Below are positions 2-28,637 of a DNA stretch of 64,000 nucleotides, piece by piece; position 1 is the first letter of the stretch; each line of letters starts with the position of its first letter. A program made the translations under genes and the position numbers. This DNA is from Bacteroidota bacterium (GTDB lineage: Bacteria > Bacteroidota > Bacteroidia > Palsa-965): NCBI GenBank assembly GCA_003153435.1, contig PLYR01000145.1:20034-84033 (forward strand), given 5' to 3'. The notes under the pieces were generated by a model. The model did not search any database. It was not told the origin of the DNA and worked only from the letters and a program-made list of their open reading frames with translations.

Positions 2-1165
2 CTTGGGTGCGTAGTGCTGATTCCTACCTATAATAATGAAGCGACACTGGAGCAGGTGATCAAGGGGGTGATGGCTTATACGAGTAAGATCATTGTAGTC
101 AATGACGGTTCAACAGATCATACAGTCGACATCCTTGCGAGCTTTCCGGGGCTTCAGATAATCAACCACGACCGAAACATCGGAAAGGGAATGGCCTTGA
201 GAAATGGATTTAAAGCCGCTCTGGAGGCCGGATACCGATATGTGATTACGATTGACAGCGACGGGCAGCATTTTCCATCCGACTTTCATCTCTTTCTGGA
301 TAAAATAACCCTAGAACCTGATTCGGTGATCATCGGGGCACGAAACATGACGGTGGATCATGTGCCCGGGAAGAGCACCTTCGGAAATAAATTCTCTAAT
401 TTCTGGTTCCTTGTTGAAACAGGAATCCGTCTTCCGGATACACAAAGCGGCTTCCGTCTATATCCGATTGAAAGGATGAAGAAGCTTCGTTTTTTTACCA
501 AACGTTTTGAATTCGAAATTGAAGTACTTGTAAAGGCTGCCTGGAACCAGATCCCGATCACTTCTGTTCCTGTAAATGTTTACTATGCAAAGGAAGGTGA
601 GCGGGTCTCTCATTTCCGGCCAGGGAAAGACTTCACTCGAATCAGCTTCCTCAATACATGGCTGGTTATCCTGGCCTACCTTTGGTATCGCCCGGTAGGC
701 ATTCTAAGAAACCTGAGCCCTTCACATATTCAGACTTTCCTGCAAAAAGCATTTCAAGACCCGGGTGAATCCATACTCCGTAAATCAGTGGCAGTGGGGG
801 TGGGGGTGTTCTTCGGAATACTTCCTATATGGGGATTTCAGCTTGCTGCGGCAATCTTTGCCGCTATCCTTCTTAAATTGAACAAAGCTATTGTAGCACT
901 AAGTGCCAACATCAGTGTTCCTCCCATGATCCCGCTCATCCTCTATGGAAGTCTGAAGACAGGAGAGTTGCTTACGGGTCGGGCAGTAAAACTTGAATTT
1001 AAAGGATTGAATATCGAGCTTCTCAAAGCCAATGCATATAATTTCTATGTATATATTTTCGGAGCAGTAGTATTGTCAGTGGCAGCTGCGGTGTTCTCCG
1101 GATTCTTAACTTACCTCTTACTCCGTATCTGGGGGCGAAAACCAACATCAGCTGCCCGTATATGA
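2..1165 (+). CDS. GT2 glycosyltransferase with a C-terminal DUF2062 membrane domain. It is 5'-partial: the ORF is open to the window edge.
   Basis: It has the IPTYNNE...VVNDGSTD...DSDGQ motifs of GT2 (DPM1/Bactoprenol-glucosyltransferase type). The C-terminus has hydrophobic DUF2062-like helices. The reading frame stays open upstream of the first GTG to base 2. The stop overlaps the next start (ATGA). Confidence 0.8.
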   Translation, partial: LGCVVLIPTYNNEATLEQVIKGVMAYTSKIIVVNDGSTDHTVDILASFPGLQIINHDRNIGKGMALRNGFKAALEAGYRYVITIDSDGQHFPSDFHLFLDKITLEPDSVIIGARNMTVDHVPGKSTFGNKFSNFWFLVETGIRLPDTQSGFRLYPIERMKKLRFFTKRFEFEIEVLVKAAWNQIPITSVPVNVYYAKEGERVSHFRPGKDFTRISFLNTWLVILAYLWYRPVGILRNLSPSHIQTFLQKAFQDPGESILRKSVAVGVGVFFGILPIWGFQLAAAIFAAILLKLNKAIVALSANISVPPMIPLILYGSLKTGELLTGRAVKLEFKGLNIELLKANAYNFYVYIFGAVVLSVAAAVFSGFLTYLLLRIWGRKPTSAARI

Positions 1166-4100
1166 ACCTATCCATCTCCCTCTTTCGTTTTTTAAGAAGA
1201 CATAAGCTCGTTTTTTTTATCGGGGTTATTTCGATCATGGTGGCTAGTGGCTATTTCGGTTCCAGGATTACTCTGGAAGAAGATATCACACGGTTTATCC
1301 CAAAGGATCCCAAAATTGATAAAATCAATTTTGTGCTGCAGAACCTTAAAATAAAAGATAAACTCATCATCAACATCTTTCAGGAAGACACTGCTGCTCC
1401 GGCATCCCCTTCTTCCCTGATGAGTATTGCTGATTCCGTTCACGAGGCCATTACGAAAGTGCTGGGTTCAGCTTATATCAAGGATTTTACCTACAAGGTT
1501 TCTGACGATTTAATGCTGCAGGTATATCATACTTTTTATGAAAACCTTCCTTTATTTCTGGATGAAAATAGTTACTCAAAAATTAACGGTATGCTTCCCG
1601 GAGATAGCATTGACCGTATCCTTAAGGCGGATTATAAGACACTTTTAAGTCCTTCCAGCATTGTCTTTTCCCGCTTTATAAAAAAAGATCCACTGAACAT
1701 TACGCTGCTGGCATTGAAGAAAATGCAGACCCTTCAGTTTGATGAAAATTTTGAGGTGAATGAGGGTTATATAATGACCAAGAACAGAAAGAACCTGCTC
1801 CTTTTTATCACACCGGCTTCTGCCTCTAACGAGACTGCAAAGAATGAACGCCTGATCACCTGTCTTGACAGCATTACTCAGAAAATATCTTCTTTGAATA
1901 AACATGCCGTGCAAGTCCAATATTACGGAGCTACGGCTGTTTCTGTTGGAAACGCCAGGCAGATTAAGAAAGATTCCATCTTTACTACTTTAATCGCTTT
2001 GTTTGGTATTGTATTGGTGTTAAGCCTGTTCTTCCGCAACAAATTGATCATTTTCCTGATTGTTTTGCCAGTAGCCTTTGGAGCTGTGTTCGCTCTGGCT
2101 ATCCTTTACCTCCTGAAAGGGCAGGTCAGTGCTATTGCTCTTGGTGCCGGATCAGTAATCCTTGGGATTGCAATTAATTATTCGATGCACTTCCTTACAC
2201 ATTTCAAGCGGGAGCGGTCGGTAGAAAATGTGATTCGTGATCTCACAGCCCCGATGCTCATTGGTTGTATCACAACTGTAGGTGCCTTTATCAGTCTGGT
2301 GTTTGTTAAATCAGAGGCTCTGCATGACTTCGGTCTATTTGCAGGTTTCAGCCTCGTAGGTTCTGTTCTGTTTACATTGATCGTTCTCCCACATCTTCTG
2401 AAATATGAAGAACCTAAGGAAGCTGGTGTAAGCGAAGAACCGAAGTTGAATTTTGTTGAACGTCTGGTTACCTATCGTCTCGATAAGAATAAATGGGTGC
2501 TGATGATTTCCTTTGCCCTTACCATTCTCTTTGCATATACCGCAAACAATGTAGGGTTCGAAAGTGACATGCTGAAAATCAATTACCAGGATGAAGCATT
2601 GAACAAAGCTCAAAAAAATCTGGATGAAGTAAATAATCTTTCCCTTCGTTCGGTGTACCTGGTTGCCAGCGGGAAGGACCTCAATTCAGCACTCCTGCAT
2701 AGTGAACAAAACATACCCAGGCTGGAGGAACTCAAAAAGCAGGGAATCGTAAAGAAGTATTCCTCTGTAAGCACGTTGTTAATCTCCGATTCTCTGCAGC
2801 ACGTCAGGGTTAGGAGATGGAATGCGTTCTGGACTCAGCAGAAAAAAGATAGCCTGAAAATGAAGCTGGTAACACTTGGCAGAAAATACAAATTCAAGGA
2901 TGAAGCATTCAGCGATTTCTATGCGCTGCTTGACCGCAGCTTCAGTACAAGCGGTGTCAACAGACTTGACACCCTGCGTAAGCTGGTTCTGAACGACTGG
3001 GTGACTGAAAATAAGGCACTTTCTACAGTGGTGACGATGGTGAAGGTGGACGGAAAGGACAAGCAAAAGATCTATGATGCATTTGCAAATAAGCCCGACT
3101 TGGTTGTCTTTGACAAACAGTTTATGACCTCTCAGTTTGTAGATGTCATCAGTTCGGATTTCATGCTGATTCTGGTTATGACCTCCTTACTCGTGCTGGG
3201 CTTTATGCTATTATCGCATGGAAGGATTGAACTTACCCTGATTAATTTCCTCCCCATGTTCATCAGCTGGCTTTGGATTCTGGGTTTGATGGGACTCATC
3301 GGATTGAAGTTTAATATCATCAATATTATTATCTCCACATTTATATTTGGTCTGGGTGATGACTATAGTATCTTCATTATGGACGGACTTCAGAATGAAT
3401 ATAAATACGGACGTAAAAACCTGGACTCCTACAAGACGGCTATTTTCATGTCGGCAGTTACAACCATTATCGGAATCGGCGTATTGATTTTTGCAAAGCA
3501 CCCGGCGCTGCAGTCCATTGCCATCATTACAATTATCGGGATGTTTACAGTCCTTTTTGTTTCCTTCATCACTCAGCCCTTACTCTATAATTTTCTAATC
3601 CTCGACCGGGCAAAACGGAAACTCCTCCCTTATACCGCTCTCAATCTTTTGATTACGTTCTGGGGCTTTCTGATGTTTACGCTCGGAAGTATCCTTGTTA
3701 ACCTGATTGGATTCGCTCTCTTCTTCCTCGTTCCTGCTCCGGTTTCAAAGAAGAAATTATTTTTTCACCGAATCATTCAATGGACCTGCAAAGGAATGAT
3801 CTATATGTTTGTGACCGTTCGGAAAAAAATAATCAATGAACATCATGAAGATTTCTCTAAACCAGCTATCATCATTGCCAATCACCAATCACATATTGAC
3901 CTCGGACTTACCCTGATGCTTCATCCGAAAATCATCGCTTTTACGAGCGACTGGGTATGGAAATCTCCATTTTATGGCAAGATTGCCCGTTTTGCTGATT
4001 ATTATCCTGCCTCGAGAGGGTATGAGACCGGTATTGCACAGGTAAAAGCAATGGTAGAAAAAGGATACTCTGTTCTTATTTTTCCCGAAGGAACACGCTC

Positions 4101-5025
4101 GAGAGATAACGAGATACACCGTTTTCATAAAGGCGCTTTCCTGTTGGCGGAGCAGCTGCAGATCGATATACTTCCTATACTCATCCATGGTGCCGGGGAT
4201 TGTGTGACTAAGGGAGATTTCCATTTCAAGGAGGGACGGCTTACAGTGAAGATCCTGGCTCGGATCAAGCCGGAAGACATGCGCTACGGAATCACCTATG
4301 CGGAGCGGACAAAAGGGATTTGCAGGGAGATGAGAAAAGAATATGCAGAGCTCCGTAAAGAGATTGAAACACCTGATTATTTCAGGGCCAGACTGATTAA
4401 GAACTTCATTTATAAAGGCCCGGTGCTTGAGTGGTACTGCCGGATCAAACTGTCATTGGAAGGCAACTATAAACTCTTTGATTCACTCTTACCAAAGAAA
4501 GGCGTGATTACTGACGTAGGTTGCGGATACGGATTCCTTCCTTACATGCTTTCTTTTACGGCACCTGAACGAATCATTCTAGGTGTTGATTACGATGATG
4601 AAAAAATCGCAGTAGCAGCGGCTTGTGTATCGAGAACAGAAAATTTGTCATTTCAGCAGGGAGATGTAACTTCCTATGATTTCCCGGAGAGTGATGCTTT
4701 CATTATCAGCGATGTTCTTCATTATCTGGAACAGTCTCAACAGGGGGAGCTGGTCAGACATTGTGCTTCAAAGCTCAAGCCCGGTGGAATGATGATCATA
4801 AGAGATGCAAACCGTGATCTGGAGAAACGTCATTGGGGAACACGCTATACCGAATTCTTTTCAACCAAGGTGCTGGGATTTAATAAAACTAGCACTAAAG
4901 GTCTCCACTTTATGTCGGCCCGGATAATGGAAGAGACGCTGAATGAAATTGGAAATGTGACCTATGAAATCATTGATAATACTAAATTGACCTCAAATAT
5001 TATCTTTGTAGTACGGCATAAATAA
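1162..5025 (+). CDS. Triple-fusion protein. Residues ~1-800 form an MMPL/RND-like predicted exporter with two sterol-sensing-type TM bundles. Residues ~830-1010 form a PlsC-type lysophospholipid acyltransferase. Residues ~1060-1287 form a class I SAM-dependent methyltransferase.
   Basis: There are two 6-TM blocks. The acyltransferase motifs NHQSHID (HX4D) and FPEGTR are present. Methyltransferase motif I is VTDVGCGYG, post-I is GVDYDD, and motif II is DAFIISDVLHYL. Translation starts with ATG at 1162 and is coupled to the upstream GT2 gene. Confidence 0.7.
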   Translation: MNLSISLFRFLRRHKLVFFIGVISIMVASGYFGSRITLEEDITRFIPKDPKIDKINFVLQNLKIKDKLIINIFQEDTAAPASPSSLMSIADSVHEAITKVLGSAYIKDFTYKVSDDLMLQVYHTFYENLPLFLDENSYSKINGMLPGDSIDRILKADYKTLLSPSSIVFSRFIKKDPLNITLLALKKMQTLQFDENFEVNEGYIMTKNRKNLLLFITPASASNETAKNERLITCLDSITQKISSLNKHAVQVQYYGATAVSVGNARQIKKDSIFTTLIALFGIVLVLSLFFRNKLIIFLIVLPVAFGAVFALAILYLLKGQVSAIALGAGSVILGIAINYSMHFLTHFKRERSVENVIRDLTAPMLIGCITTVGAFISLVFVKSEALHDFGLFAGFSLVGSVLFTLIVLPHLLKYEEPKEAGVSEEPKLNFVERLVTYRLDKNKWVLMISFALTILFAYTANNVGFESDMLKINYQDEALNKAQKNLDEVNNLSLRSVYLVASGKDLNSALLHSEQNIPRLEELKKQGIVKKYSSVSTLLISDSLQHVRVRRWNAFWTQQKKDSLKMKLVTLGRKYKFKDEAFSDFYALLDRSFSTSGVNRLDTLRKLVLNDWVTENKALSTVVTMVKVDGKDKQKIYDAFANKPDLVVFDKQFMTSQFVDVISSDFMLILVMTSLLVLGFMLLSHGRIELTLINFLPMFISWLWILGLMGLIGLKFNIINIIISTFIFGLGDDYSIFIMDGLQNEYKYGRKNLDSYKTAIFMSAVTTIIGIGVLIFAKHPALQSIAIITIIGMFTVLFVSFITQPLLYNFLILDRAKRKLLPYTALNLLITFWGFLMFTLGSILVNLIGFALFFLVPAPVSKKKLFFHRIIQWTCKGMIYMFVTVRKKIINEHHEDFSKPAIIIANHQSHIDLGLTLMLHPKIIAFTSDWVWKSPFYGKIARFADYYPASRGYETGIAQVKAMVEKGYSVLIFPEGTRSRDNEIHRFHKGAFLLAEQLQIDILPILIHGAGDCVTKGDFHFKEGRLTVKILARIKPEDMRYGITYAERTKGICREMRKEYAELRKEIETPDYFRARLIKNFIYKGPVLEWYCRIKLSLEGNYKLFDSLLPKKGVITDVGCGYGFLPYMLSFTAPERIILGVDYDDEKIAVAAACVSRTENLSFQQGDVTSYDFPESDAFIISDVLHYLEQSQQGELVRHCASKLKPGGMMIIRDANRDLEKRHWGTRYTEFFSTKVLGFNKTSTKGLHFMSARIMEETLNEIGNVTYEIIDNTKLTSNIIFVVRHK

Positions 5026-5051
5026 CTTCTGCACTCATCTGCACTCAATTC

Positions 5052-6575
5052 ATGGCTAAATACGATATTGTTATTGTGGGGAGTGGCCTAGGGGGGCTGT
5101 GCTGTGGATATATCCTCAGCAAGGAAGGCTTTAATGTTTGTATCCTCGAAAAAAACAGACAGCTTGGCGGGAGCCTGCAGATATTTTCCAGAGATAAAGC
5201 CCTCTTTGATACCGGCATTCATTATATCGGAGGTCTTGATGAAGGACAGAACCTAAACCGGTACTTTCAGTATTTTGGTTTGATGGACAAGCTCAAGCTC
5301 AAGCGAATGGATATGGATGCGTTTGATGTCATCACCTTTGAGGGAGACCCTAAGCAGTATCATCATGCTCAGGGTTATGATAATTTTGTGAATGTCCTGG
5401 CTCTTCAATTTCCTGGAGAAAGGGAAAATATACAAAGGTATGCGGATAGGGTCAGAGAGATCTGTGATTATTTTCCTCTATATCGTCTTAGAGAAGATAA
5501 TAAGGACCTGCTCACGAGCAGTAGCTTTCTGGAGACAGACACCAAGCAGTATATTGAATCCATAACCACCAACCCGAAACTTCGGAGTGTGTTGGCAGGT
5601 TCTAACCCCTTATATGCCGGGATCCCGAATCGTACTCCGCTTTATGTACATGCATTGGTTGTGAATACGTATATTGAAAGTTCTTGGAAGTGTATTGATG
5701 GTGGAGCTCAGATCAGTAAACATCTTTCTCAATCCATAAAGGGGATGGGAGGCACTATTCTCAATTACAGTGATGCGAAAAAGTTTCACTTCAACGGTTC
5801 TAACATTGAATCCGTTGAACTTGCGGATGGGTCAAGAGTGGAAGCCAAACATTTTATTTCCAATGCGGATCTTTCAAGGACTCTGGAGATGGTTGAAGGA
5901 AACCAGGTAAGACCCGCTTACCGGTCGCGGATTAATGGATTGGAGAACACGATTTCAGCATTTATAGTCAATATTGTTTTTAAAAAAGAGAGTTTCCCTT
6001 ACCTCAATTATAATTGTTACCACTTTGCGACTGATGATGTCTGGTGCGGCACCACTTATACCCAGGAAACATGGCCTGACGGATTGGCAATTTTTACTGC
6101 GCCGAATTCACGTACCGGTCAGTATGCCGATAGTATGACGGTGATGTGCTATATGCACTATGATGAAACCAAGCAATGGGCTGGTACCCGAAGCACGATT
6201 CCGAATCAAATTGAATTCCGTGGGGAAGGGTATGAAGCTTTCAAACAAGAGAAATCAGAAAAGATGATTGATCTCCTGGAAAAACGGTTTCCCGGAATAC
6301 GTTCAAGCATTCAATCCTACACGTCATCCAGCCCTCTTACCTACAGAGATTATATCGGCTCCCGGGATGGAACACTCTATGGAATTCAAAAAGATTATAG
6401 AGACCCTCTTAAAACATTTATTACTCCCAAAACAAAAATTCCAAACTTGTTACTGACTGGTCAGAACCTGAACTTGCATGGTGTGTTGGGAGTTACAGTG
6501 AGTTCTGTGGTAACCTGTGCAGAGCTTGTCGGACAGAAGGACCTGATCAGGAAAATCAGTGCCGCATCGAGTTAA
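5052..6575 (+). CDS. FAD/NAD(P)-binding oxidoreductase of the phytoene-desaturase (CrtI/COG1233) family
   Basis: The N-terminus has the dinucleotide-binding motif DIVIVGSGLGGLCCGYIL...LEKN..LGG. The length of about 507 aa fits the CrtI-like amine-oxidase fold. Confidence 0.65.
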   Translation: MAKYDIVIVGSGLGGLCCGYILSKEGFNVCILEKNRQLGGSLQIFSRDKALFDTGIHYIGGLDEGQNLNRYFQYFGLMDKLKLKRMDMDAFDVITFEGDPKQYHHAQGYDNFVNVLALQFPGERENIQRYADRVREICDYFPLYRLREDNKDLLTSSSFLETDTKQYIESITTNPKLRSVLAGSNPLYAGIPNRTPLYVHALVVNTYIESSWKCIDGGAQISKHLSQSIKGMGGTILNYSDAKKFHFNGSNIESVELADGSRVEAKHFISNADLSRTLEMVEGNQVRPAYRSRINGLENTISAFIVNIVFKKESFPYLNYNCYHFATDDVWCGTTYTQETWPDGLAIFTAPNSRTGQYADSMTVMCYMHYDETKQWAGTRSTIPNQIEFRGEGYEAFKQEKSEKMIDLLEKRFPGIRSSIQSYTSSSPLTYRDYIGSRDGTLYGIQKDYRDPLKTFITPKTKIPNLLLTGQNLNLHGVLGVTVSSVVTCAELVGQKDLIRKISAASS

Positions 6576-6590
6576 TACCTGACAACCTAT

Positions 6591-7334
6591 TTATAGATTT
6601 TCAAGCATCTTTATCACCTCTGGTCTTTTTCTAGAGGAAACAGGTACTTGGGTGCCGTCCTGCATAATGATGTAACCTCCCTCTGTTTTTACAAATTCCT
6701 TTATAAACCGGGTGTTAATAAGGTGGGAGTTGTGAACCCTGTAAAATCCATGGCCGGAAAGCATTTCTTCAAAATCCTTCATCGTACGAGTCACTACTAG
6801 TTTTTTACCGTTGGTAAAGAAGAATTCGGTATAATTTATGCTCGATTCGCATCGCTGTATCTCAGAAATACTCACTACATGAATTTTGTCCAGAGAATGG
6901 AGTGCTAATTTCTCCTGCTTTTTTTGCCCTCCGTCGATGGTCCTCTTCAGTAATTCCAGACTAAGTTCAGATCCATGCAACGTACCCGACGCTTTTTTGA
7001 CAGCCTGTTTAAGCTCCTCAGGATCGATGGGCTTGAGAAGGTAGTCGACCGCCGAAAACCTAAAAGCCTTGATTGCATGAGCATCAGAGGCGGTGGTAAA
7101 TATAATCCGGAAGGGAATATCTTTCAGGATATCCAACAGGTCAAACCCGCTTCCATCCTGCATCTGAATGTCCAGGAAAACAACATCCGGGTGGAGATTC
7201 TTTAATATTCTTGCGCCTTCTACAACGCCGCCTGCTTCTCCGATAATCTGAACTTCTGGACAAAGATTCTCCAGGTCCTTTCTCAGTGTTTTGCGGGCGT
7301 CTTCAATATCGTCTATAAGAATGGCTTTCAGCAT
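6591..7334 (-). CDS. Two-component response regulator with a CheY-like receiver domain and a LytTR DNA-binding domain
   Basis: It has the receiver motifs ILIDD...D(54)-like FLDIQM...KP. The C-terminus is a LytTR-type beta domain. It lies immediately downstream of the sensor kinase on the same strand. Confidence 0.8.
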   Translation of the reverse strand: MLKAILIDDIEDARKTLRKDLENLCPEVQIIGEAGGVVEGARILKNLHPDVVFLDIQMQDGSGFDLLDILKDIPFRIIFTTASDAHAIKAFRFSAVDYLLKPIDPEELKQAVKKASGTLHGSELSLELLKRTIDGGQKKQEKLALHSLDKIHVVSISEIQRCESSINYTEFFFTNGKKLVVTRTMKDFEEMLSGHGFYRVHNSHLINTRFIKEFVKTEGGYIIMQDGTQVPVSSRKRPEVIKMLENL

Positions 7335-7358
7335 GGGAGTTTTATCAAAGATAATTAC

Positions 7359-10300
7359 TTAATTCCTAATAGGGATCCTTATCAGGATCCGGGTTCCGGC
7401 GGGGTTGCCGGAATCGTCCATAAGGTCGGTGATTTCCAGTGTTCTGATTCCTGAATCGGTGTTCATCAGATCAAGCCTCTCTTGAGTAACCACCAACGCA
7501 GTTGATTTGTGCTGATGATCCTGCTGAGCCCTGTTAAGAGAAGCTGCTTTGACTTGTCCAATGCCATTATCGGTAACACTGCACTCCAGAAAATTTCCTT
7601 CTCTCCTAAAACAGATTGTAATTTTACCTCTGCTCTGAAGATGCCGGAGCCCATGAATGACAGCATTTTCGGCGAACGGTTGTATCATCATCGGTGGGAT
7701 TTGTTCTTCAGAAGGAACCAGGCCCTCTCCGCATATGATTTCGAAATCAAACCGGTTTCCGCTGCTAAACTTTTCGAGCGACAGGTAATTCTCTAGTGTA
7801 CTAATCTCTTCCTCCAGTGAGATATAGGTATTTCTGGAGTTTTCAAGGATCATTCGCATGAGTTTGGAGAACTGGGCCAGGTAGTGTCGGGCGGTTTGTT
7901 CATTATTATCTGTAATCTGCGCTTGTATAGAGTTCAGCGCATTGAAAATAAAATGAGGATTCATCTGCAGTCTCAAAGCCTTTTGTTCAAGCTCCAGGAT
8001 TGACTTTTCGGTCTCCAGAAGCTTCCTCTGGGAAGCTGATTTTTTTCGAATAGTTTGGATTCTTAACCTGAAACTAGCTAAGATCAGAAGTATGAGAAAG
8101 ATGAAACTAGAAACAAGAAACCAGGTTTTAAACCAGAAGGGTTTGAGAATAGTAAAGGGGATCAGGGAACTCTGGTCATTCCAGATACCATCTTCATTGC
8201 ACGACTTTACTTCAAAAATGTATTCTCCTGGAGGGAGGTTTGAATAGGTGGCATTTCTTTGCGATGAAGCCGGCGACCAATCCTTTTCCAAACCCTCTAG
8301 TCTCCAGCGGTATTTTACATTTTCAGGAGAACTGAGGTTAATCCCTGTAAATTCAAAACCAATGTGGTTTTGATTATAGGGAAGTAAGAGGGGATGGAGG
8401 AGTTCTGACCATTTGCCGAATACATCCTTGTACTCAGTCTTTTCTATAGGCTCATAGAAAAGGGTTAGCCCGCTAATATGTAACAGCGGAGGGAGTACAT
8501 TCTTTTTTCTGTTACCGGTACTCAGGGAAGTAAGGCCATTGACCGTGCCGAACCAAATTGTACCCTCAGCATCGGTATAAGCCGCATTCTGGCATGTTTC
8601 TATGCCGGAAAAGCCTTCCTTCTTTCCGAAATGATTGATCTCTGCAATATGTCTGCCTTCAGCAAAAACGATCTTGTCAAGTCCGGTTTCTGAGCCTACA
8701 AAAAGATTGTGCTGATTATCCTGTGCCAGCAAGTAAACATTTAGGGAGTTTAGTCCGTTTTGAAGATTTAAATTTTCGAACCTGAAATCAGGGTTCTTCA
8801 GGTTGAGACAGGAGACCCCTGAACCGGCAGTTCCGATCCAGAGATAACCGGCTTGATCATAACAAAGAGATCGAATCAGTTTGCTGTTTAATCCTTCTTT
8901 CTGTCCAAGACAGGCTTCCACATGATTGGTTCGGATATAGCCAATACCTCCTGTTTCTGCTCCGAACCAGATACGGCCTTGATTATCTTCTGCAAGGCAA
9001 TTGATGCGTTCAAGGCCCGGGAAGTCTGACTTTATATGCAGGACGCTGTATCTCTTCTTTGGGCTATCAGAAACGCTGATCTTATATATTCCGGAACCTG
9101 CTGTGGCAACCCACATGTTATGAAGGGAATCCCGCAAAATATACCGTATATATTTTCCGTGAAGTTCATGAATAGGGGTGAAGGCTTCTCCATCATAGGT
9201 ATAAACACCTTGTCCTTCGGTACCGATCCACAAGTCTCCGAAAGAATCTTCACTAATGGCCTTTACTTTTGTGTCTCTGAATCCGTTTTCTGCACCCAGA
9301 GGTCTGAATTGTTTTCCGTCATAAGTGCAAAGACCTTTATCACCCGTACCGATCCAAAGCAGGCCTTGACCGTCGCGGTAAACGCTATAAACAAAATTAC
9401 TGCTGAGGCCATTGTTCTTGTCATAATGATTGAAAGCCTGCCCCGAATATTCACTGACTCCACCTCCCGAAGTGCCAAACCACAGGTTGCTTCGGGTATC
9501 CTGAAGGATGCATCTCACATGATTATTACCAAGTCCGTCGCTTTCCCGTAGAAAATGACAAGTGCTGTCTTCGGGGTTCCAACGGCAAACACCGTCAGTT
9601 AACGTGGCCACCCAAAGGTTGGATAATTTATCAGCTTTGATGTCGAGCACGATCTCCTGGTCAAGCTCATGTTTGGATTTAAGCCTTGAGAAGGAACTGT
9701 TTTTATAGATGAATATGCCAAGTCCGTAAGTTCCGACCAACAAATGGTGTTTCCTGTCTTCCCCAATAGATTGAATGGCATTGGTGCCAAGGCCGCTTCC
9801 TTTGGAGAAGACTGTTACTGCCCTTCCGGAGGAGAGATCAATACGGCATAAACCACAATCACTACTCCCTGCCCAGATTTTGCCTTCACTGTCTTTAAAA
9901 ATGGAGAGTATATTATGGTGAGCAAAGCATTTTTTAAAAAGACTGAAGCTTTTCCCATCGAAAACATAAATTCCATTGTTGGTAGCCAACCATGCGGTTG
10001 AATGGTTCCCCATGGCAATGGCTTGTATATGAACGATACTGCTGTCTTTGTCGGGATAAAAGTTTGTGAATTTTTCTCCGTCAAACACACTCAGTCCGTT
10101 GCTGGTTCCTATCCAAAGCCGGTGTTCGGCGTCCTCTGAAATACAGGAAATGTAATTGCTGGGCAATCCGTCTCTGACGGTATATGTTTTGAAGTTCAAT
10201 CCATCATAGCGACAGACTCCCCCTCCACGGGTCCCCATCCATACATACCCGCGACTATCTTCAAAGAGGGCATAGACCTGGCTTTGAGCCACACCTTCTT

Positions 10301-10400
10301 CTACAGAAAAGTTTCTGAAATGGTATTGCTGGGATGAGCAAGATGCCGGTATGAGGCAGCAGGCTGCAAGAATGAGCGAAAAGTAAAGTAAGGTTTTCAC
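7359..10400 (-). CDS. Sensor histidine kinase, LytS-type. It has a signal peptide, a periplasmic two-component-regulator beta-propeller (Reg_prop repeats), a Y_Y_Y domain, one TM segment, then His_kinase (PF06580-like) and HATPase_c domains.
   Basis: Translation starts with GTG, and a signal peptide is present. About 12 repeated motifs of the type WIGT..GL..YDG are found. The Y_Y_Y signature (KYRWRLEG...W) is present. The LytS-type H-box is NPHFIFNALNSIQ. The ATPase N/G boxes are near the C-terminus. Confidence 0.75.
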   Translation of the reverse strand: MKTLLYFSLILAACCLIPASCSSQQYHFRNFSVEEGVAQSQVYALFEDSRGYVWMGTRGGGVCRYDGLNFKTYTVRDGLPSNYISCISEDAEHRLWIGTSNGLSVFDGEKFTNFYPDKDSSIVHIQAIAMGNHSTAWLATNNGIYVFDGKSFSLFKKCFAHHNILSIFKDSEGKIWAGSSDCGLCRIDLSSGRAVTVFSKGSGLGTNAIQSIGEDRKHHLLVGTYGLGIFIYKNSSFSRLKSKHELDQEIVLDIKADKLSNLWVATLTDGVCRWNPEDSTCHFLRESDGLGNNHVRCILQDTRSNLWFGTSGGGVSEYSGQAFNHYDKNNGLSSNFVYSVYRDGQGLLWIGTGDKGLCTYDGKQFRPLGAENGFRDTKVKAISEDSFGDLWIGTEGQGVYTYDGEAFTPIHELHGKYIRYILRDSLHNMWVATAGSGIYKISVSDSPKKRYSVLHIKSDFPGLERINCLAEDNQGRIWFGAETGGIGYIRTNHVEACLGQKEGLNSKLIRSLCYDQAGYLWIGTAGSGVSCLNLKNPDFRFENLNLQNGLNSLNVYLLAQDNQHNLFVGSETGLDKIVFAEGRHIAEINHFGKKEGFSGIETCQNAAYTDAEGTIWFGTVNGLTSLSTGNRKKNVLPPLLHISGLTLFYEPIEKTEYKDVFGKWSELLHPLLLPYNQNHIGFEFTGINLSSPENVKYRWRLEGLEKDWSPASSQRNATYSNLPPGEYIFEVKSCNEDGIWNDQSSLIPFTILKPFWFKTWFLVSSFIFLILLILASFRLRIQTIRKKSASQRKLLETEKSILELEQKALRLQMNPHFIFNALNSIQAQITDNNEQTARHYLAQFSKLMRMILENSRNTYISLEEEISTLENYLSLEKFSSGNRFDFEIICGEGLVPSEEQIPPMMIQPFAENAVIHGLRHLQSRGKITICFRREGNFLECSVTDNGIGQVKAASLNRAQQDHQHKSTALVVTQERLDLMNTDSGIRTLEITDLMDDSGNPAGTRILIRIPIRN

Positions 10401-10450
10401 AGACGGATTGTCAGAAAACCAAAGATAGTGAATGTTAAAACGAAAACGGG

Positions 10451-10738
10451 TTAAGACTTCGCGCCGGCCGAAAGATACTTCAAGATAAGGACCTTCTGTT
10501 CATCAGTGAACTGGTGTCCGCCTCTTTTGTTTTGCATTTTATCTACGATTGTTGTCCATTCTGCTGCGGTATGGCCACTTGGAGTCGCACGCTTAATGTT
10601 ATGGCACTTGCTGCAGGCAGTATGCCAGGCTCCTTCTTCAGGGGTGGCAGGGGTATAAGTAGAATCGGTAGCTCCTCCTTTTTTTCCGCAGGAGATGATA
10701 ACTAAGCTTATAATCGAAAGGATAAATAATTTTTTCAT
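10451..10738 (-). CDS. Small lipoprotein with a single CxxCH haem-binding motif (a mini c-type cytochrome). It is a paralogue of the gene at 35616-35900.
   Basis: The likely start is an ATG at 10738, giving MKKLFILSIISLVIISC, which is an SPII lipobox. The mature protein is about 75 aa and contains W..ACSKCHN. A Met candidate for the distal haem ligand (DKMQNK) follows. The longer ORF that starts at 10804 lacks a signal peptide. Confidence 0.5.
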   Translation of the reverse strand: MKKLFILSIISLVIISCGKKGGATDSTYTPATPEEGAWHTACSKCHNIKRATPSGHTAAEWTTIVDKMQNKRGGHQFTDEQKVLILKYLSAGAKS

Positions 10739-10834
10739 TCCTGATGTATTTGTTGTTGAATCAAACAGTGAATCAACACCAAAAATAAGCATTTTTTGAA
10801 GCAAGTCACCTTCTGGAGTGAAAATCAGTCAAGG

Positions 10835-11908
10835 TTAAACACTATGAAGATTTTCATGCAGGAGGAAATTGGAGATAAAGTCGCCTGTAGCAGTAGTTGA
10901 TCTCCCTCCTGAAGGGTTTAGATCTAGGGTCAGGGCTTCTGCTTGAATTGCTTCTTCCACAGCTCTGTGGATCCATGCACTCTCCAGTGGGAGCTGAAAC
11001 GAATATTCCAGCATCATTGCAGTAGAAAGAATTGCCCCGATAGGGTTAGCGATGTTCCGGCCTGCTGCTTCCGGCCAGGAACCATGGACGGGTTCATATA
11101 GAGATACTTTATTCCCTATGCTGGCGGAAGGCAGCATACCTAAGGAACCGGTAAGAACAGAAGCTTCATCACTCAGGATATCACCGAACATATTTTCGGT
11201 CAGAATAACATCAAACTGACGTGGGTTCTGTATGAGTTGCATAGCGGCATTGTCTACATACAAATAATCCACTTCCACACCTGGAAAATTGCCGGAGATT
11301 TCTCGTACCACTTCTCGCCAGAGCCTGGACGTCTCCAGGACGTTAGCCTTATCGACCAGGGTCAGCTTTTTCCTTCTTTGCATGGCTGCTTCAAAAGCCG
11401 GAATAGCGATGCGGATTATTTCTTCCCGGGTATAAAGGCAAAGGTCACTTGCTGAATCAGCACTTCTTTTCTTTTCACCGAAATACAACCCTCCTGTCAG
11501 CTCCCGGAAAATCACCAGATTAGCTCCAGCCAGTACTTGAGCTTTCAGCGGTGATCGGTTATAGAGACCAGGATAGCTCTTAACAGGACGGATATTTGCA
11601 TACAATCCCAATTCTTTTCTCATCCTTAACAAGCCTTGTTCAGGACTCATTCCCGATGGGTGGCGCTGATCAAAACGGGGATCCCCAACTGCTCCCAGAA
11701 GGATTGCATCGGAGGAGCGGCATAATTTCCCGGATTCTGGAGGGAATGGATCACCAACAGAGTCGATAGCTGCTGCACCAATCAGTGCTTCTGTAAAGGT
11801 GAATTTATGATTAAACCGGGTTGCTATTGCCTGGAGGATCTTAACAGCCTCCTTTGTGACCTCTTTTCCAATTCCATCGCCCGGAAGCAGTGCTATATTC
11901 TTTTTCAT
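10835..11908 (-). CDS. leuB: 3-isopropylmalate dehydrogenase
   Basis: It has LPGDGIGKEV and the IDH/IMDH fold motifs. It is 357 aa. The start overlaps the leuD stop by 4 bp. Confidence 0.9.
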   Translation of the reverse strand: MKKNIALLPGDGIGKEVTKEAVKILQAIATRFNHKFTFTEALIGAAAIDSVGDPFPPESGKLCRSSDAILLGAVGDPRFDQRHPSGMSPEQGLLRMRKELGLYANIRPVKSYPGLYNRSPLKAQVLAGANLVIFRELTGGLYFGEKKRSADSASDLCLYTREEIIRIAIPAFEAAMQRRKKLTLVDKANVLETSRLWREVVREISGNFPGVEVDYLYVDNAAMQLIQNPRQFDVILTENMFGDILSDEASVLTGSLGMLPSASIGNKVSLYEPVHGSWPEAAGRNIANPIGAILSTAMMLEYSFQLPLESAWIHRAVEEAIQAEALTLDLNPSGGRSTTATGDFISNFLLHENLHSV

Positions 11909-12522
11909 ATTCTGGAAAGGTTTTCAATAGAGGAAGCTTTTTTTTGCTCAAATAACGCGATCTGATCCCGTATCGAGAGAAGGTAATCTATATCGTCCAA
12001 CCCTTCCAGGAGACATAATTTTTTGTATGGGTTTATTACAAAAGGATAGGAGGTGGACTCACCATCGAAGAGTTCTACAAACTGATCTCTAAGATTAACA
12101 CCGATCTGAGTAGAAGGACTTTTCTTGCATTTTGCAAAGAGTTGTTTGAGGATGTTTTCAGGGAGTGTTATGGTAAGCAGACCGATATTAAGTGCGTTGT
12201 TTCGGAAAATGTCAGCAAAGCTTTCGGCAATGATAGCATCGAAGCCATAGTCTTGTATAGCCCATGCAGCATGCTCCCGACTGCTTCCACAGCCGAAATT
12301 TTTGCCTGTCATAAGAATTTTTCCATGAAAGGAGTCGTTGTTGAGGATGAACCCGGCCTTTTTCTTTCCGGAACTGTCGTACCGAAGATCCCGGAATAAA
12401 TTTTCTCCAAAGCCCGTTCTTCCGGTAGCTTTGAGGAACCGGGCCGGAATGATCTGGTCTGTGTCAATATTATCCGCTTCTAGCGGAACAACGGTGGATC
12501 TGAATGATTGAAATTTATTCAT
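11905..12522 (-). CDS. leuD: 3-isopropylmalate dehydratase small subunit
   Basis: It has the LeuD motifs (DNIDTDQIIPARFL, GCGSSREHAAWA). The start was reassigned to the internal ATG (MNKFQSF) at 12522. The listed 263-aa ORF is an upstream read-through that would overlap leuC. Confidence 0.85.
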   Translation of the reverse strand: MNKFQSFRSTVVPLEADNIDTDQIIPARFLKATGRTGFGENLFRDLRYDSSGKKKAGFILNNDSFHGKILMTGKNFGCGSSREHAAWAIQDYGFDAIIAESFADIFRNNALNIGLLTITLPENILKQLFAKCKKSPSTQIGVNLRDQFVELFDGESTSYPFVINPYKKLCLLEGLDDIDYLLSIRDQIALFEQKKASSIENLSRI

Positions 12523-12532
12523 CGTTTCTGAT

Positions 12533-13921
12533 TTAAGATGCCAACATTCGTATATCTGTGATATATCCATTGATGGCGCTTGCTGCCGCTGTTGCAGGGC
12601 TGGCAAGGATGGTTCTGGCACCAGGTCCTTGTCTTCCTTCAAAATTCCGGTTTGAAGTAGCCATACAATAAGAGAGCGGAGGAATCTTATCTTCATTCAT
12701 ACCCAGGCATGCAGAACATCCGGATTCTCTGAACTCAAATCCCGACTCCAGAAAGATATCTTCCAGACCTTCAGATTTGGCTTGTTGACGAACTCTTTGT
12801 GATCCTGGCACAATGAAGGCAATTACATCCTGTGAAACCTTTTTTCCTTTCACTACGGCTGCAACAATGCGCAGATCTTCGATCCTGGAATTGGTACAGC
12901 TTCCAATGAACACATAATCGAGTTTCTTCCCTGCTACTGGCTCCCCACCTTGCCATCCCATATACTCCAGGGCCTTTCTGTCTGACGGATTATTCAATAC
13001 CGGAATATTTGAATCAACGGCGATACCCATTCCAGGGTTAGTACCATAAGTCACCATTGGAGCAAGTCCTGTGATGTCGAAGTGAAGTTCCCTGGCAAAG
13101 AAGGCTCCTTCATCCGAATGTAATTCCTTCCACCTCTCAAGCGCTGCCTCTAATGCTTTTCCTTTGGGAGCGAAGGGCCTGTTTCGGATATACTCCAGGG
13201 TTTTGTCATCAGGTGCAATGATCCCACCACGGGCACCCATTTCTATACTCATATTGCATACGGTCATTCTTTCTTCAATGCTCAGAGCTGATATGGCACT
13301 TCCCATATATTCCACAAAGTGCCCTGTTGCAGCATCTGTTGAGGCCTGGGAGATAATGTATAAAATCAGATCCTTGGAACTTAACCAAGGACCCATTTCT
13401 CCCGTGACACAAATTTTCATTGCCGGGGGTCTCTCCTGAAGCAGGCACTGAGATGCAAAAACTTGCTCCACCTCTGTTGAACCAATCCCAAAAGCAAGGG
13501 CACCAAGTCCTCCGTGAGTGGAAGTATGACTGTCGCCACATACCATGGTCATTCCAGGGAGAGTTATTCCAAGCTCAGGGGCAATAACATGAACAATGCC
13601 TTGATTGGGATGACCAAGACCGAAGAGTTCGATTTCATGCTTCCTGCAGTTCTCCACTAACCGGCTTACCTGCAGTCGTGACATTTCTTCGCGAATAGGA
13701 AGATGTTGATTTATTGTAGGTACATTATGATCTGCAGTTGCCAGCGTTTGCTCTTTACGGAAAACAGAAATACCTCTTTTCTCCAGTCCGGCAAAGGCCT
13801 GAGGGCTAGTTACTTCATGAATGAGGTGTTTATCAATATAGAGCACATCCGGACCGCCTGGGATGCCTGTCACCTTGTGTTCATCCCAGATTTTATCAAA
13901 GAGTGTTTTAGCCTTCTTCAT
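12533..13921 (-). CDS. leuC: 3-isopropylmalate dehydratase large subunit (aconitase family)
   Basis: It has the aconitase-family Fe-S ligand regions (GDSHT, CTNSR, SCSACLG). It is 462 aa. There is a 4-bp overlap with the upstream leuA-like gene. Confidence 0.9.
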
Positions 13922-15181: not shown

Positions 15182-16786
15182 ATGGGTGTAAAAAGTCTAT
15201 TAACACTATACATTACGATGTCTAAAACAACTTCTGATGATTTGTTTCAATTGATTCATTCGCTAACCAAAAGCGAAAAGAGACATTTTAAGATATACGC
15301 ATCCAGAGTCAGCAGTGAAGAAGGAAAAAAATTCATTCATCTTTTTGATCTGATCCATGCACAGAAGAGGTATGATGAAGCGGCATTAAAAAAGGATTCG
15401 AAACTTAATCCAAGGCAGATCCCAAATCTTAAGGTACATCTCTATAAACAAATCCTCTTGTCCGTTAAAATGATTAATACTTCGGATTGTGTTGAAGTGG
15501 AAATCAGGAATCTTATTGATAGTGCGCAGTTGCTTTATAATAAATGTCTGTATAAACAGTGCATTGCAATGCTCGATAAAGCAAAGAAACTCGCAGTTCT
15601 CACCGACAGAGATGTACTGCATCTCGATATTCTGGAGCTTGAACGGACTGTTTTAAATCAAACGGTTTCTGCGAATAATGAAGATCGGGTGAAAGCGGTG
15701 GTGGCGGAAACGCGAGCTCTTTCGAAGAGCATCCGGAACATCAATATTTTTGCAAATCTTTCCTTGCGTTTGAATTCATTCTATGTGAAAATGGGATTCA
15801 TTCGTGGAGAGAGTGACCTCAAAAAGGTCAAGAAAATATTCATCCGTTATATGCCAGAATATGACGAAGCCAAGCTTTCTTTTTATGAGAAAGTCTATCT
15901 ATACTGTTGCTATACCCAGTATTATTATTTTATTCAAGATTTTCAGAATGTCAGGGTTTATGCTCTTCGATGGGTCGGACTTTTTGAAGCGGACCAGCAA
16001 AAAATCAGAAATAATCTGGAGAGTTATATACGAAGCTTGAATTACCTGCTTATGGCACAGAACAAACTGATGCTTTATGATGAATTCAGCGCCACTTTGA
16101 AAAAGCTCGTTGCTCTAAAGAGGGATAAGAGTATTAATCTGACGGAAAACATTAATCTGGTCATGTTCCGAACGATTTATGTTCATGAAATAAACAGACA
16201 TTTTATGCTTGGGGAGTTTACTTCCGGAACCCGCATCGTCACTCGTCTTGAACACGAGCTTAATGCATTAATTCCAAAACTGGATAAGCATTATCTCCTG
16301 ATCTTCTATTATAAAATAGCATGCCTGTATTTTGGAGCAGGGGAATACAAACGGGCCATTTTCTGGTTGAACAAAATAATCAATTTCCAGGAGGATGACG
16401 TAAGGGTTGATATCAGTTCTTTTGCCCGGATACTTTCACTGATCAGTCACTATGAGCTAAAGAACTATGATCTTTTGGAATATCAGATCAAATCGACCTA
16501 CAGGTTTCTTGCTAAAAACGGAAACCTGGGGCTTTATCAAAAAATCATTCTTGGTTTTATCAGAAAATTATCAGGAGGGATGAATGAGAAAGGCATTCGG
16601 ACTGAATTCATAAAACTTAAGAATTCTCTGGTCAAGCTTCAGGAAGACCCTTTTAACAGGAAGGCCTTTGTTTACTTCGACATCATTTCCTGGCTAGAGA
16701 GTAAAATTGAGTCCAGGCCTGTCCAGGAAATAATAAAAGAAAAAGTAAAAAATAAGCTGCTCTCTAAAAATCTGGTAGAGTTATAA
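15182..16786 (+). CDS. Hypothetical all-alpha (TPR-like) protein
   Basis: It is a long, uninterrupted ORF of 534 aa. It is rich in K/L/Y and has no recognisable catalytic motifs. An alternative ATG lies at 15221. It is divergent from the leu operon and convergent with the DUF4249 gene. Confidence 0.5.
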   Translation: MGVKSLLTLYITMSKTTSDDLFQLIHSLTKSEKRHFKIYASRVSSEEGKKFIHLFDLIHAQKRYDEAALKKDSKLNPRQIPNLKVHLYKQILLSVKMINTSDCVEVEIRNLIDSAQLLYNKCLYKQCIAMLDKAKKLAVLTDRDVLHLDILELERTVLNQTVSANNEDRVKAVVAETRALSKSIRNINIFANLSLRLNSFYVKMGFIRGESDLKKVKKIFIRYMPEYDEAKLSFYEKVYLYCCYTQYYYFIQDFQNVRVYALRWVGLFEADQQKIRNNLESYIRSLNYLLMAQNKLMLYDEFSATLKKLVALKRDKSINLTENINLVMFRTIYVHEINRHFMLGEFTSGTRIVTRLEHELNALIPKLDKHYLLIFYYKIACLYFGAGEYKRAIFWLNKIINFQEDDVRVDISSFARILSLISHYELKNYDLLEYQIKSTYRFLAKNGNLGLYQKIILGFIRKLSGGMNEKGIRTEFIKLKNSLVKLQEDPFNRKAFVYFDIISWLESKIESRPVQEIIKEKVKNKLLSKNLVEL

Positions 16787-16807: not shown

Positions 16808-17608
16808 TTAAGGAAGCTGGATGGTTCTCTTTCGATAAGCATAAGCTCCGAAGGATCCCAGTCCCCCATTGCTAATATTCGTCACAGGATTGGCCGAAGG
16901 AGCTGAAAACGGACCACCGGCGGTAAGTGTTCCTTGCAAGGTATTATAGAAATCATAAGAATTTTTATCAAAACAAACCAGGTCCACCCTCACACTATCG
17001 CCGAAGAGCATTTCAGAATTTCGTAACCGTACATGCTGAGCGTTCCCGTTTATAAGCTTATCGCTGATTACCCTGTTATCGACGAGGTCGTTAAGCAGGA
17101 TTCCATTTCGGTAAAGACGAAAACCGTAATAATTTCCCAAGGCCGTTGGATCAGTAAAGGAGAGTGTTACCGAATAGCTTCCGATGTTTCCATTTCTCGG
17201 GGTGCCAGGTCGGTAAGCAGAACTGATAGAATCAATTGACACGGTATCAGGCATAGTGGAGATGGAAGTATAGACTTTTCCCGAGGAAGTCACACTCAGG
17301 GTATAGGTATTACCGATTGTGCCGACAAGCGTTGATGTCATGTAATTCCCGGGAGAGCTTTCATGAAGGGTTTCCGCATGACCAGCATTGTCAGAGATGA
17401 TGACTGTGGCTCCGGAGAGAGGATTAAACCCTGCTGCACCGAAATAATTCGTTGTAGTGCTCAGTTTTATAAGATAGGGGCCTGGATAATTATCTACATG
17501 CCCTTCAATGACCACCTTTGGGGAGACTGAATTCAGATCGATGGTTATCACTTCCTGGCAGGAAAAAAGGCCGCAGATCAAGATGAATAGTGGAATGAGC
17601 TTTTTCAT
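16808..17608 (-). CDS. DUF4249-family lipoprotein. This is the usual partner of non-SusC TonB-dependent receptors in Bacteroidota.
   Basis: The lipoprotein signal is MKKLIPLFILICGLFSC. It is 266 aa. It lies 2 bp downstream of the TonB-dependent receptor on the same strand. Confidence 0.45.
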   Translation of the reverse strand: MKKLIPLFILICGLFSCQEVITIDLNSVSPKVVIEGHVDNYPGPYLIKLSTTTNYFGAAGFNPLSGATVIISDNAGHAETLHESSPGNYMTSTLVGTIGNTYTLSVTSSGKVYTSISTMPDTVSIDSISSAYRPGTPRNGNIGSYSVTLSFTDPTALGNYYGFRLYRNGILLNDLVDNRVISDKLINGNAQHVRLRNSEMLFGDSVRVDLVCFDKNSYDFYNTLQGTLTAGGPFSAPSANPVTNISNGGLGSFGAYAYRKRTIQLP

Positions 17609-17610
17609 TA

Positions 17611-26450: not shown

Positions 26451-26988
26451 CGTTGTGTTAATGATTATCAAAGGTTAAATCATAACATTGTAAAGCGTAT
26501 CCAATTCGCAATACACGAATCAAATTAATCCGGCCAAATAACAGATTGGACGATGGAATTACTCTTTTGTACGGAAGATTTCAAGAATAGATATACTTTT
26601 CTTAAAATAAACCTCAAAAACAATAATTATATTTGTAATCAGATCAATATTATAGGATTCCCTAAGCCTTATATTATTGATTAGTAGTGAGTTCTGCAGT
26701 GTGGTTCTTGGCTTTAAATTTCCGAAAAATTCCCGAAACCAGACAGGATAATTTGATAACATTCGACCAAAAGTATTTTATTGTCGACAAATATTATTAA
26801 ATATTCGACTAATATACTAAAAATAACTACTAACTAAAGTTTTTAGGCACATAAATTAGGCTTTTGACTGTATAAAATGGCCTTTCATCCAAAAAATAAT
26901 TTCGGAATTCAAGCGCAGACCTTGTAAGATTTCGGCAGGAAATTGTGATCGACAGGCAGGCCGATTTATGGGAAGAAATGCTAATTTA

Positions 26989-28541: not shown

Positions 28542-28637
28542 ATTCAAGTTGTTAATTATGATTGGCTCCTCTTTAAATTAAACAAATGTTAAGAATTCTT
28601 GCGATACCAAAATTAGGGAATGGATCCTTGGTAAACA

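Follow-up and report, generated by a model that had tools for sequence, protein, structure and literature searches.

The locus described in this study lies on the minus strand of a 64,000-nucleotide (nt) stretch of contig PLYR01000145.1 from an uncultured Bacteroidota bacterium (the whole of this stretch is called the window below). It combines a predicted haem-bearing lipoprotein, a propeller-type sensor histidine kinase and a LytTR-family response regulator. The gene order is leuA, leuC, leuD and leuB (end at 10835), a small open reading frame (ORF), an ORF of 1013 amino acids (aa) and an ORF of 247 aa. The spacer between leuB and the small gene is 96 nt, that between its stop (10451) and the GTG start codon of the kinase (10400) is 50 nt, and the kinase stop is separated from the regulator start by 24 nt. 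An earlier note on this DNA had placed the cytochrome gene 50 bp upstream of the kinase and on its strand, with the regulator following, and the three minus-strand ORFs were recovered exactly so. It had also proposed that the cytochrome could serve the kinase as a periplasmic redox or ligand co-sensor, and on this point our analysis leads elsewhere. The small protein is probably an independent electron carrier of the periplasm which stands beside an ordinary propeller LytS/LytTR system, and this reading is held with moderate confidence. The main features are as follows.

10451 to 10738, minus strand: gene of the predicted lipoprotein monohaem c-type cytochrome, 95 aa (ORF; start reassigned from homologues).
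10688 to 10690, minus strand: codon of the lipobox cysteine Cys17 (I-I-S-C), the predicted lipidation site, identified from the sequence and invariant in all aligned homologues.
10601 to 10615, minus strand: CSKCH, the CxxCH motif for haem c attachment, residues 42-46, with C42, C45 and H46 invariant.
10535 to 10537, minus strand: codon of Met68, the candidate sixth haem ligand, invariant and within the predicted helix 58-69.
7359 to 10400, minus strand: sensor histidine kinase, 1013 aa, GTG start (Pfam, PDB sequence matches, topology and family search).
8067 to 8132, minus strand: single internal transmembrane helix of the kinase, approximately residues 757-778 (hydropathy scan), separating the periplasmic sensor from the cytoplasmic core.
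6591 to 7334, minus strand: LytTR-family response regulator, 247 aa, with receiver and LytTR DNA-binding domains (Pfam).

The start of the cytochrome gene had earlier been set at a TTG codon at 10804. The ATG at 10738 (MKKLF...) is most likely the true start, as the MKK at the corresponding position opens all of the homologues (17/17). For the kinase, the GTG start is backed by orthologues which carry the same N-terminal signal sequence.

Read from the revised start, the small protein opens with a signal peptide and lipobox as far as Cys17; about 15 aa of linker then lead to a haem domain, which takes up about 60 aa. The end of the signal peptide, MKKLFILSIISLVIIS-C17, matches the lipobox pattern [LVI][ASTVI][GAS]C. 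C17, C42, C45, H46 and M68 are invariant among the 22 aligned family members. The residues that follow the lipobox cysteine are G-K-K and not acidic and, when compared with the published export signals of Bacteroidetes, this suggests a cytochrome which is exposed to the periplasm rather than to the cell surface. The AlphaFold2 model, built from an 8-sequence alignment, is all-helical with helices at 33-41, 58-69 and 79-91; its mean predicted local distance difference test (pLDDT) score is 71.8, and the average is above 83 across the C-terminal 45 residues. In the Foldseek comparison the top four PDB matches are all c-type cytochromes (the dihaem cytochrome DHC, as 3u99, 2fw5 and 2fwt; SorB 2blf_B), with probabilities of 0.87-0.99 but weak E-values of 0.2-0.5, as is expected for about 60 residues. 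The PDB sequence search with the cytochrome gave a marginal match to ScyA alone (E 0.69).

A profile search against 1.84 billion representatives retrieved 979 proteins at E<=1e-3, including 64 at E<=1e-10. Many of these relatives are tandem arrays of the cytochrome domain in which each repeat has its own CxxCH, and such multihaem relatives pass the Pfam models PF13442 (Cytochrome_CBB3) and PF09098 (Dehyd-heme_bind) with 51-93 bits. A single-domain relative of 98 aa (P0130) passes PF13442 at 30.3 bits. The window protein itself reaches 15.6 bits against PF13442 (cutoff 27) and 21.8 bits against the NCBIfam SorB model (cutoff 93). With the latter score, and with no SorA-like neighbour in the gene contexts examined, an identity as SorB, the sulfite dehydrogenase subunit, has been rejected. 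Taken together, the invariant residues, the predicted fold and the profile relatives argue convincingly for a minimal, lipid-anchored class I cytochrome c with His/Met ligation, to which haem would be attached at the CxxCH motif. The earlier description of a small lipoprotein with a single CxxCH and a candidate Met ligand is thereby upheld.

The members of this cytochrome clade are annotated as 'hypothetical protein' or are unnamed, and are found in metagenome-assembled genomes (MAGs) of uncultured Bacteroidia. Some of the sample names (palsa, and BW labels which presumably stand for Barre Woods forest soil) point to soils. These minimal lipoprotein cytochromes c make up a small clade of uncultured soil Bacteroidia, unannotated so far, and every curated model leaves it below threshold.

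The kinase is a far better populated protein. Pfam assigns to it nine significant Reg_prop stretches (E 2.9e-61, 195.9 bits), a Y_Y_Y domain (E 3.9e-20, 72 bits) and the His_kinase domain PF06580 at residues 805-884 (E 4e-22, 78.7 bits with a cutoff of 25.2), and for the ATPase domain the HATPase models give sub-threshold matches. The motif NPHFIFNALNSI, which includes NPHF, is located at residue 814. The hydropathy scan detects hydrophobic segments only at residues 1-22 and about 757-778, and therefore residues 24-755 or so (about 730 aa) are predicted to be extracytoplasmic. In the PDB sequence search the sensor matches structures of sensors from the hybrid two-component systems (HTCS) of Bacteroides (4A2L at E 7.4e-71; also 3V9F and 3OTT), the PF06580 region matches 6SWJ, and a weak similarity to PorZ is seen in the NCBIfam search. 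The regulator passes the Response_reg and LytTR models at 66.7 and 62.3 bits, both over the cutoff. Its best NCBIfam match is BtsR (E 3.9e-39); the score of 134 bits against an equivalog cutoff of 246 led us to reject it as a BtsR or LytR orthologue.

The earlier account of a wholly periplasmic sensory region (signal peptide, propeller, Y_Y_Y), a LytS-type core with a LytTR regulator and a likeness to glycan-type propeller/Y_Y_Y sensors agrees with these results, except that its figure of about 12 Reg_prop repeats should be taken as approximate beside the nine significant stretches. The claim that such an architecture is unusual has to be withdrawn. In the family search 7,850 of the 8,000 scored candidates fell at E<=1e-10, so that at least 7,850 homologues exist, and each of the top 120 is full-length at about 1000 aa, shows 45-63% identity and carries Reg_prop, Y_Y_Y and PF06580. 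They come from Bacteroidia and Flavobacteriales MAGs and are labelled 'two-component regulator propeller domain-containing protein' or 'ligand-binding sensor domain-containing protein'. The family is thus of very large size in Bacteroidota, and the kinase-regulator pair of the window is ordinary among its members. The combination of propeller/Y_Y_Y sensor and LytS/LytTR output is hence a very large and still uncharacterised sensor family and not an oddity; in the literature searched, neither an experimental characterisation of a propeller-LytS protein nor a cytochrome co-sensor of this type turned up.

Whether the cytochrome is tied to this kinase was examined through gene order. A first, word-indexed homologue search gave eight proteins and missed homologues at 51-56% identity; divergent cytochromes were then recovered from unannotated small ORFs upstream of the kinase orthologues in two loci (L015, L014), and further loci came from alignment-based scans (14-sequence alignment) of species genomes and metagenomes, to reach 18 lineages after de-duplication. 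An initial view that the adjacency is restricted to three near relatives was overturned by the homologues at 51-56% identity beside the kinases of L015 and L014. The arrangements found are listed below, with L numbers denoting the loci.

Cytochrome adjacent to the kinase and upstream of it on the same strand: the window/L007, L022, L011, L008, L015/L019, L014 and L021 (seven lineages).
Cytochrome adjacent to the kinase in divergent orientation: L028 (one lineage).
Kinase orthologue at a distance of 6.6 kb, beyond five intervening genes of mixed orientation: L001 (one lineage).
No kinase in the flanks: L010/L016, L017, L004/L018, L006, L027, L020, L029, L030 and L031 (nine lineages).

In the neighbour-joining tree the cytochromes form four clades, A to D, with A and B as sisters.

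Clade A: the window, L022, L011, L008, L001, L010 and, at its base, L017; kinase-adjacent in 4/7.
Clade B: L015, L028, L014 and L021; kinase-adjacent in 4/4.
Clade C: L004, L006 and L027; kinase-adjacent in 0/3.
Clade D: L020, L029, L030 and L031; kinase-adjacent in 0/4.

All eight of the adjacent cases among the 18 lineages fall in clades A and B, and since these clades are sisters the adjacency requires only one origin. The background conservation of gene order is high, as the seven-gene block of L019 (522-aa gene, leuA, leuC, leuD, leuB, cytochrome, kinase) is collinear with the window. Within clades A and B the adjacency of leuB and the cytochrome is kept in six lineages, about as well as that of the cytochrome and the kinase (eight lineages); the linkage is comparable, yet no one would infer from it a role of the cytochrome in leucine synthesis. 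In the same clades the cytochrome-kinase adjacency was lost three times, and every time the cytochrome was kept. At L017 the cytochrome lies between leuB and a gene of an oxidoreductase dependent on flavin adenine dinucleotide (FAD) while the kinase and regulator are gone from the locus, and L010/L016 is similar.

The kinase, for its part, is found without the cytochrome. At L012 the kinase and regulator come directly after a DUF4249 gene with no cytochrome between. The three kinase orthologues of this kind that were checked (L012, L036 and L037) are 46-58% identical to the window kinase; within 5 kb of the kinases of L012/L013, L036 and L037 no cytochrome homologue was detected, the best tblastn match (E 0.022) falling inside another gene, and the only ORFs there with a CxxCH are antisense frames. 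The kinase-regulator pairs of L011, L012, L036 and L037 are orthologous to that of the window, and the adjacent 247-aa LytTR regulator is kept in the distant orthologues. The cytochromes of clade C lie between a gene of a YfhO-like membrane protein and SWIB/TonB-dependent-receptor genes. In all four of clade D the neighbour is a conserved gene in divergent orientation, whose product has about 492-510 aa (for example L020 6303-7781); the L020 copy, the sole one that was Pfam-scanned, carries Metallophos and Por_Secre_tail domains, i.e. it is a metallophosphoesterase which the T9SS (type IX secretion system) secretes. This clade D partner is the only recurrent neighbour of the cytochrome outside the kinase clades. 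An accessory gene of a three-component sensor would be linked to its kinase throughout the family; the linkage found here is 8/18 among the cytochrome lineages and 0/3 among the checked orthologues. With two sister clades holding all the adjacent cases, three breaks within them and kinase orthologues lacking the cytochrome, the partnership put forward earlier is not conserved.

Two further observations were made on the layout of these loci. In L014 (620-8087) and L021 (about 557-8095), the position immediately upstream of the cytochrome is taken by a second propeller/Y_Y_Y/PF06580 kinase, a distant one of 22-24% identity, together with a LytTR regulator of its own, in the order second kinase, second regulator, cytochrome, kinase, and the orthologous kinase is there without its own adjacent regulator. 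The region downstream of a TonB-dependent receptor/DUF4249 pair (window 16808-19938, minus strand; compare L001 and L012) is a rearrangement hot spot: DUF4249 is followed in the window by the 522-aa gene with leuACDB, the cytochrome and the kinase-regulator pair, in L001 by the cytochrome, five genes and the kinase, and in L012 by the kinase-regulator pair.

The transcription signals of the locus were examined with a scan for the Bacteroidetes -7 consensus, TAnnTTTG, and three boxes were located in the short spacers.

10780 to 10787, minus strand: -7-type box TATTTTTG (TAnnTTTG), 41 nt upstream of the cytochrome ATG (match start 49 nt) with an A-tract before it; putative promoter.
10420 to 10427, minus strand: -7-type box TATCTTTG in the 50-nt spacer, 19 nt before the kinase GTG; putative promoter.
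7346 to 7353, minus strand: TATCTTTG box between the kinase and regulator genes (24-nt gap); as it is only 11 nt away from the ATG of the regulator, its significance is uncertain.

The consensus is not enriched in the window as a whole (60 observed, 58 expected). In the three short spacers it occurs on the correct strand three times in 170 nt, as against 60 times in 128,000 strand-positions, from which about 0.08 would be predicted. The cytochrome box with its A-tract is conserved in L022, L008, L017 and L014. The box before the kinase belongs to a block, CACTATCTTTGGT.TTCTGAC, which L008 and L011 have in common with the window, and in L015 and L014 the kinase is also preceded by a TAnnTTTG box. 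A strong hairpin follows the cytochrome gene in L008, L011, L015 and L014 (z-scores of -2.8 to -4.0), with a T-run in L008 and L011, and so the spacer in these hairpin-bearing relatives looks like a terminator followed by a promoter. As far as can be judged from such sequence signals, the separate boxes and the hairpins of the relatives would argue against an obligate cytochrome-kinase operon. The sigma-70 promoter and simple terminator scans gave nothing above shuffled sequences on the relevant strand.

Two repeats in these spacers deserve mention. A direct repeat of GATTCA with 11-12 nt spacing lies in the presumed 5' leader of the cytochrome (window 10739-10779, minus strand). It is common to the window and L022 (upstream of 3041), the 91% relative, and is not present in the more distant relatives; as a conserved regulator-type site it has been set aside, being kept only in that one relative. 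The cytochrome-kinase spacer of L014 (4870-5000) contains a long imperfect palindrome of repeated GAAGTCAGAAGGAA-like units (-42.6 kcal/mol, z -2.96), which is more elaborate than a simple terminator.

On the explanation favoured here, the small gene would encode a lipid-anchored, periplasm-facing monohaem class I cytochrome c with His/Met ligation, probably transcribed from its own promoter, whose job is most likely ordinary electron transfer between redox enzymes of the membrane or periplasm. The double-propeller/Y_Y_Y domain of the kinase, which has the fold of the glycan-binding HTCS sensors of Bacteroides, would bind a periplasmic ligand, most plausibly a glycan or an envelope component by analogy with the HTCS sensors and PorZ. 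Binding of the ligand would control the LytS-type kinase, which in turn may phosphorylate the LytTR regulator. The two sister clades, both of soil Bacteroidia, would owe the adjacency of the two systems to a common ancestor, in which it probably had its single origin as part of a conserved block of leuACDB, cytochrome and kinase. It probably persists through inheritance and not through the cytochrome being part of the sensor.

Several observations weigh against this explanation. The window cytochrome lies below every Pfam and NCBIfam cutoff, and no redox partner for it was found in any gene context examined. Read-through co-transcription of cytochrome and kinase is possible in the window, where, as in its 91% relative L022, only about 50 nt separate the two genes and no hairpin is seen (z +1.1 for the window, +0.3 for L022). 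In clades A and B the cytochrome-kinase adjacency (8/11) is at least as well kept as that of the kinase and its regulator. Three rearrangements have left it intact: in L014/L021 a paralogous kinase-regulator pair was inserted, which now separates leuB from the cytochrome; in L015 other genes took the place of those downstream and the adjacent regulator was lost; and in L028 an inversion made the two genes divergent. Since the adjacency survived these events, a lineage-specific link between cytochrome and kinase has to be weighed and could take one of two forms.

The first form, which may be regarded as a minor possibility, keeps the cytochrome outside the sensor but links it to the system as a target gene of the LytTR regulator or as a part of the sensed pathway, with the adjacency mildly selected in some lineages. 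LytTR systems often control an adjoining gene, as in LytSR-lrgAB. The promoter region of the cytochrome could hold regulator sites, and the partial conservation of the adjacency and the GATTCA direct repeat in the leader of the window and L022 are consistent with such a tie. On the other hand, the repeat is absent beyond the closest relative, clade B has no regulator next to the kinase, and nine lineages keep the cytochrome among unrelated neighbours (YfhO-like/SWIB/TonB-dependent receptor; T9SS metallophosphoesterase). Moreover, the LytTR binding motif for such a family is not known.

The second form is the one suggested earlier and appears unlikely. The haem lipoprotein would be a periplasmic accessory co-sensor which docks on the propeller/Y_Y_Y domain and reports a redox state or a haem ligand (O2, NO, sulfide), making a three-component system. 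The same-strand genes with a hairpin-free 50-nt spacer in the window and L022 point this way, as does the adjacency in 8/11 lineages of clades A and B, even after inversion (L028) and replacement of the flanks (L014, L015), and both the cytochrome and the kinase sensor face the periplasm. A precedent also exists: in its apo form the cytochrome TorC binds to TorS at the periplasmic region and has an inhibitory effect (review PMC8534201). Against it stands the disparity between a kinase family thousands strong and a cytochrome clade of a few dozen sequences, together with the kinase orthologues at 46-58% identity which have no cytochrome. Where the kinase and regulator have left the locus (L017, L010/L016) the cytochrome is still kept, in clades C and D no kinase accompanies it, and the relatives have a hairpin and then a promoter box between the two genes. 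Further, the invariant Met68 implies a six-coordinate His/Met haem, which is typical of electron carriers rather than of gas or ligand sensors.

Accordingly small is the chance given to its evolutionary version, in which a minimal lipoprotein cytochrome c was recruited in one lineage of soil Bacteroidia as a redox-reporting kinase subunit that couples periplasmic electron transport to the LytTR regulon. If the co-sensor were real, it would provide the first testable input for a large orphan kinase family and would show, in a new case, a cytochrome acting as accessory protein of a kinase. A type of sensor which has so far been connected with glycan binding alone would gain a third component based on haem. 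The comparative data do not favour this reading. Least probable is a small helical lipoprotein which binds no haem and uses CxxCH as a metal-binding or disulfide motif, since the scores below the curated cutoffs (PF13442, SorB) and the weak Foldseek E-values that would suit it are opposed by the invariance of CxxCH together with a Met about 22 residues downstream, by profile relatives which pass PF13442/PF09098 and occur as CxxCH-bearing tandem repeats, and by four best fold matches which are all cytochromes c.

The remaining observations concern the surroundings of the locus. The leuD gene appears as a mechanical ORF of 263 aa (11905-12696, minus strand) that overlaps leuC by 164 nt, and in the gene callers' annotation of the identical contig it has 205 aa and starts after leuC; the longer form is probably an artefact of the first-start rule. 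Divergent from leuA, a gene at 15182-16786 (plus strand) encodes a protein without a Pfam match, of 522-534 aa in this family, which is kept at the same position in L008, L017 and L019 with 61-80% identity. On the other side, the genes at 14-6575 (plus strand) are convergent with the LytTR regulator and encode a GT2-DUF2062 protein, a 1287-aa MMPL-acyltransferase-methyltransferase fusion and an FAD-dependent (amino-oxidase/phytoene-desaturase-like) oxidoreductase; they resemble a part of an aryl-polyene/flexirubin-type pigment cluster. The same two pigment-type genes border the kinase-regulator pair in L011 and directly the cytochrome in L017, and in L012 the kinase has ApeI/ApeP-like genes nearby. 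The window ORFs that were searched with Pfam include no respiratory or cytochrome-maturation genes that hint at a dedicated pathway, and the Rfam and tRNA scans of the window returned no matches.

Farther along the window, two paralogous regulators with the architecture REC-cNMP_binding-HTH_Crp_2, an uncommon output arrangement for response regulators, are encoded at 27480-28547 (minus strand) and 39439-40500 (plus strand). The latter lies directly downstream of a soluble PAS-HisKA kinase (38143-39414, plus strand) and the former about 4 kb from a second one (32334-33425, minus strand). The gene at 20133-26471 (minus strand) codes for a protein of 2112 aa which has SprB repeats and, for type IX secretion, a CHU_C domain; the G+C content of its region is 0.49-0.505 as compared with about 0.42 in the surroundings, and falls to 0.37 just after it.

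In comparison with known systems, the window cytochrome shares the single CxxCH, the downstream Met and the short helical fold with SorB (2BLF_B), the N-terminal domain of DHC (2FW5, 3U99), PF13442 and PF09098. It differs from them in that its haem domain is only about 60 aa, scores below the thresholds and has no adjacent redox enzyme. In being lipid-anchored it is like membrane-tethered carriers such as CccB of Bacillus, a lipoprotein cytochrome c. The only kind of system that the co-sensor idea resembles is that of kinases with periplasmic accessory proteins, namely TorT-TorS, CpxP-CpxA and apo-TorC-TorS; TorC is a pentahaem respiratory subunit which acts as the apo form, whereas the predicted partner in the window is monohaem and is not conserved with the kinase family.

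The kinase shares with the HTCS proteins of Bacteroides thetaiotaomicron (4A2L/4A2M, 3V9F, 3OTT/3VA6) the extracytoplasmic sensor of Reg_prop and Y_Y_Y followed by one transmembrane helix. In the HTCS proteins the same chain runs on into HisKA/HATPase, a fused receiver and a DNA-binding domain of the AraC type, whereas the window has a PF06580 kinase and a separate LytTR regulator; membership of the kinase in the HTCS group has been rejected, as Pfam finds no HisKA, Response_reg or HTH_18 in the 1013-aa protein. With LytS/LytR and BtsS/BtsR (YehU/YehT) the pair shares the PF06580 domain with its NPHF motif and a cognate receiver-LytTR regulator. Kinases of the LytS/BtsS type sense through multi-pass membrane domains (5TM-Lyt, GAF), whereas that of the window does so through a periplasmic propeller domain of about 730 aa. 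Its domain order is identical to that of the uncharacterised propeller-kinase family of Bacteroidota, from which it shows no architectural difference.

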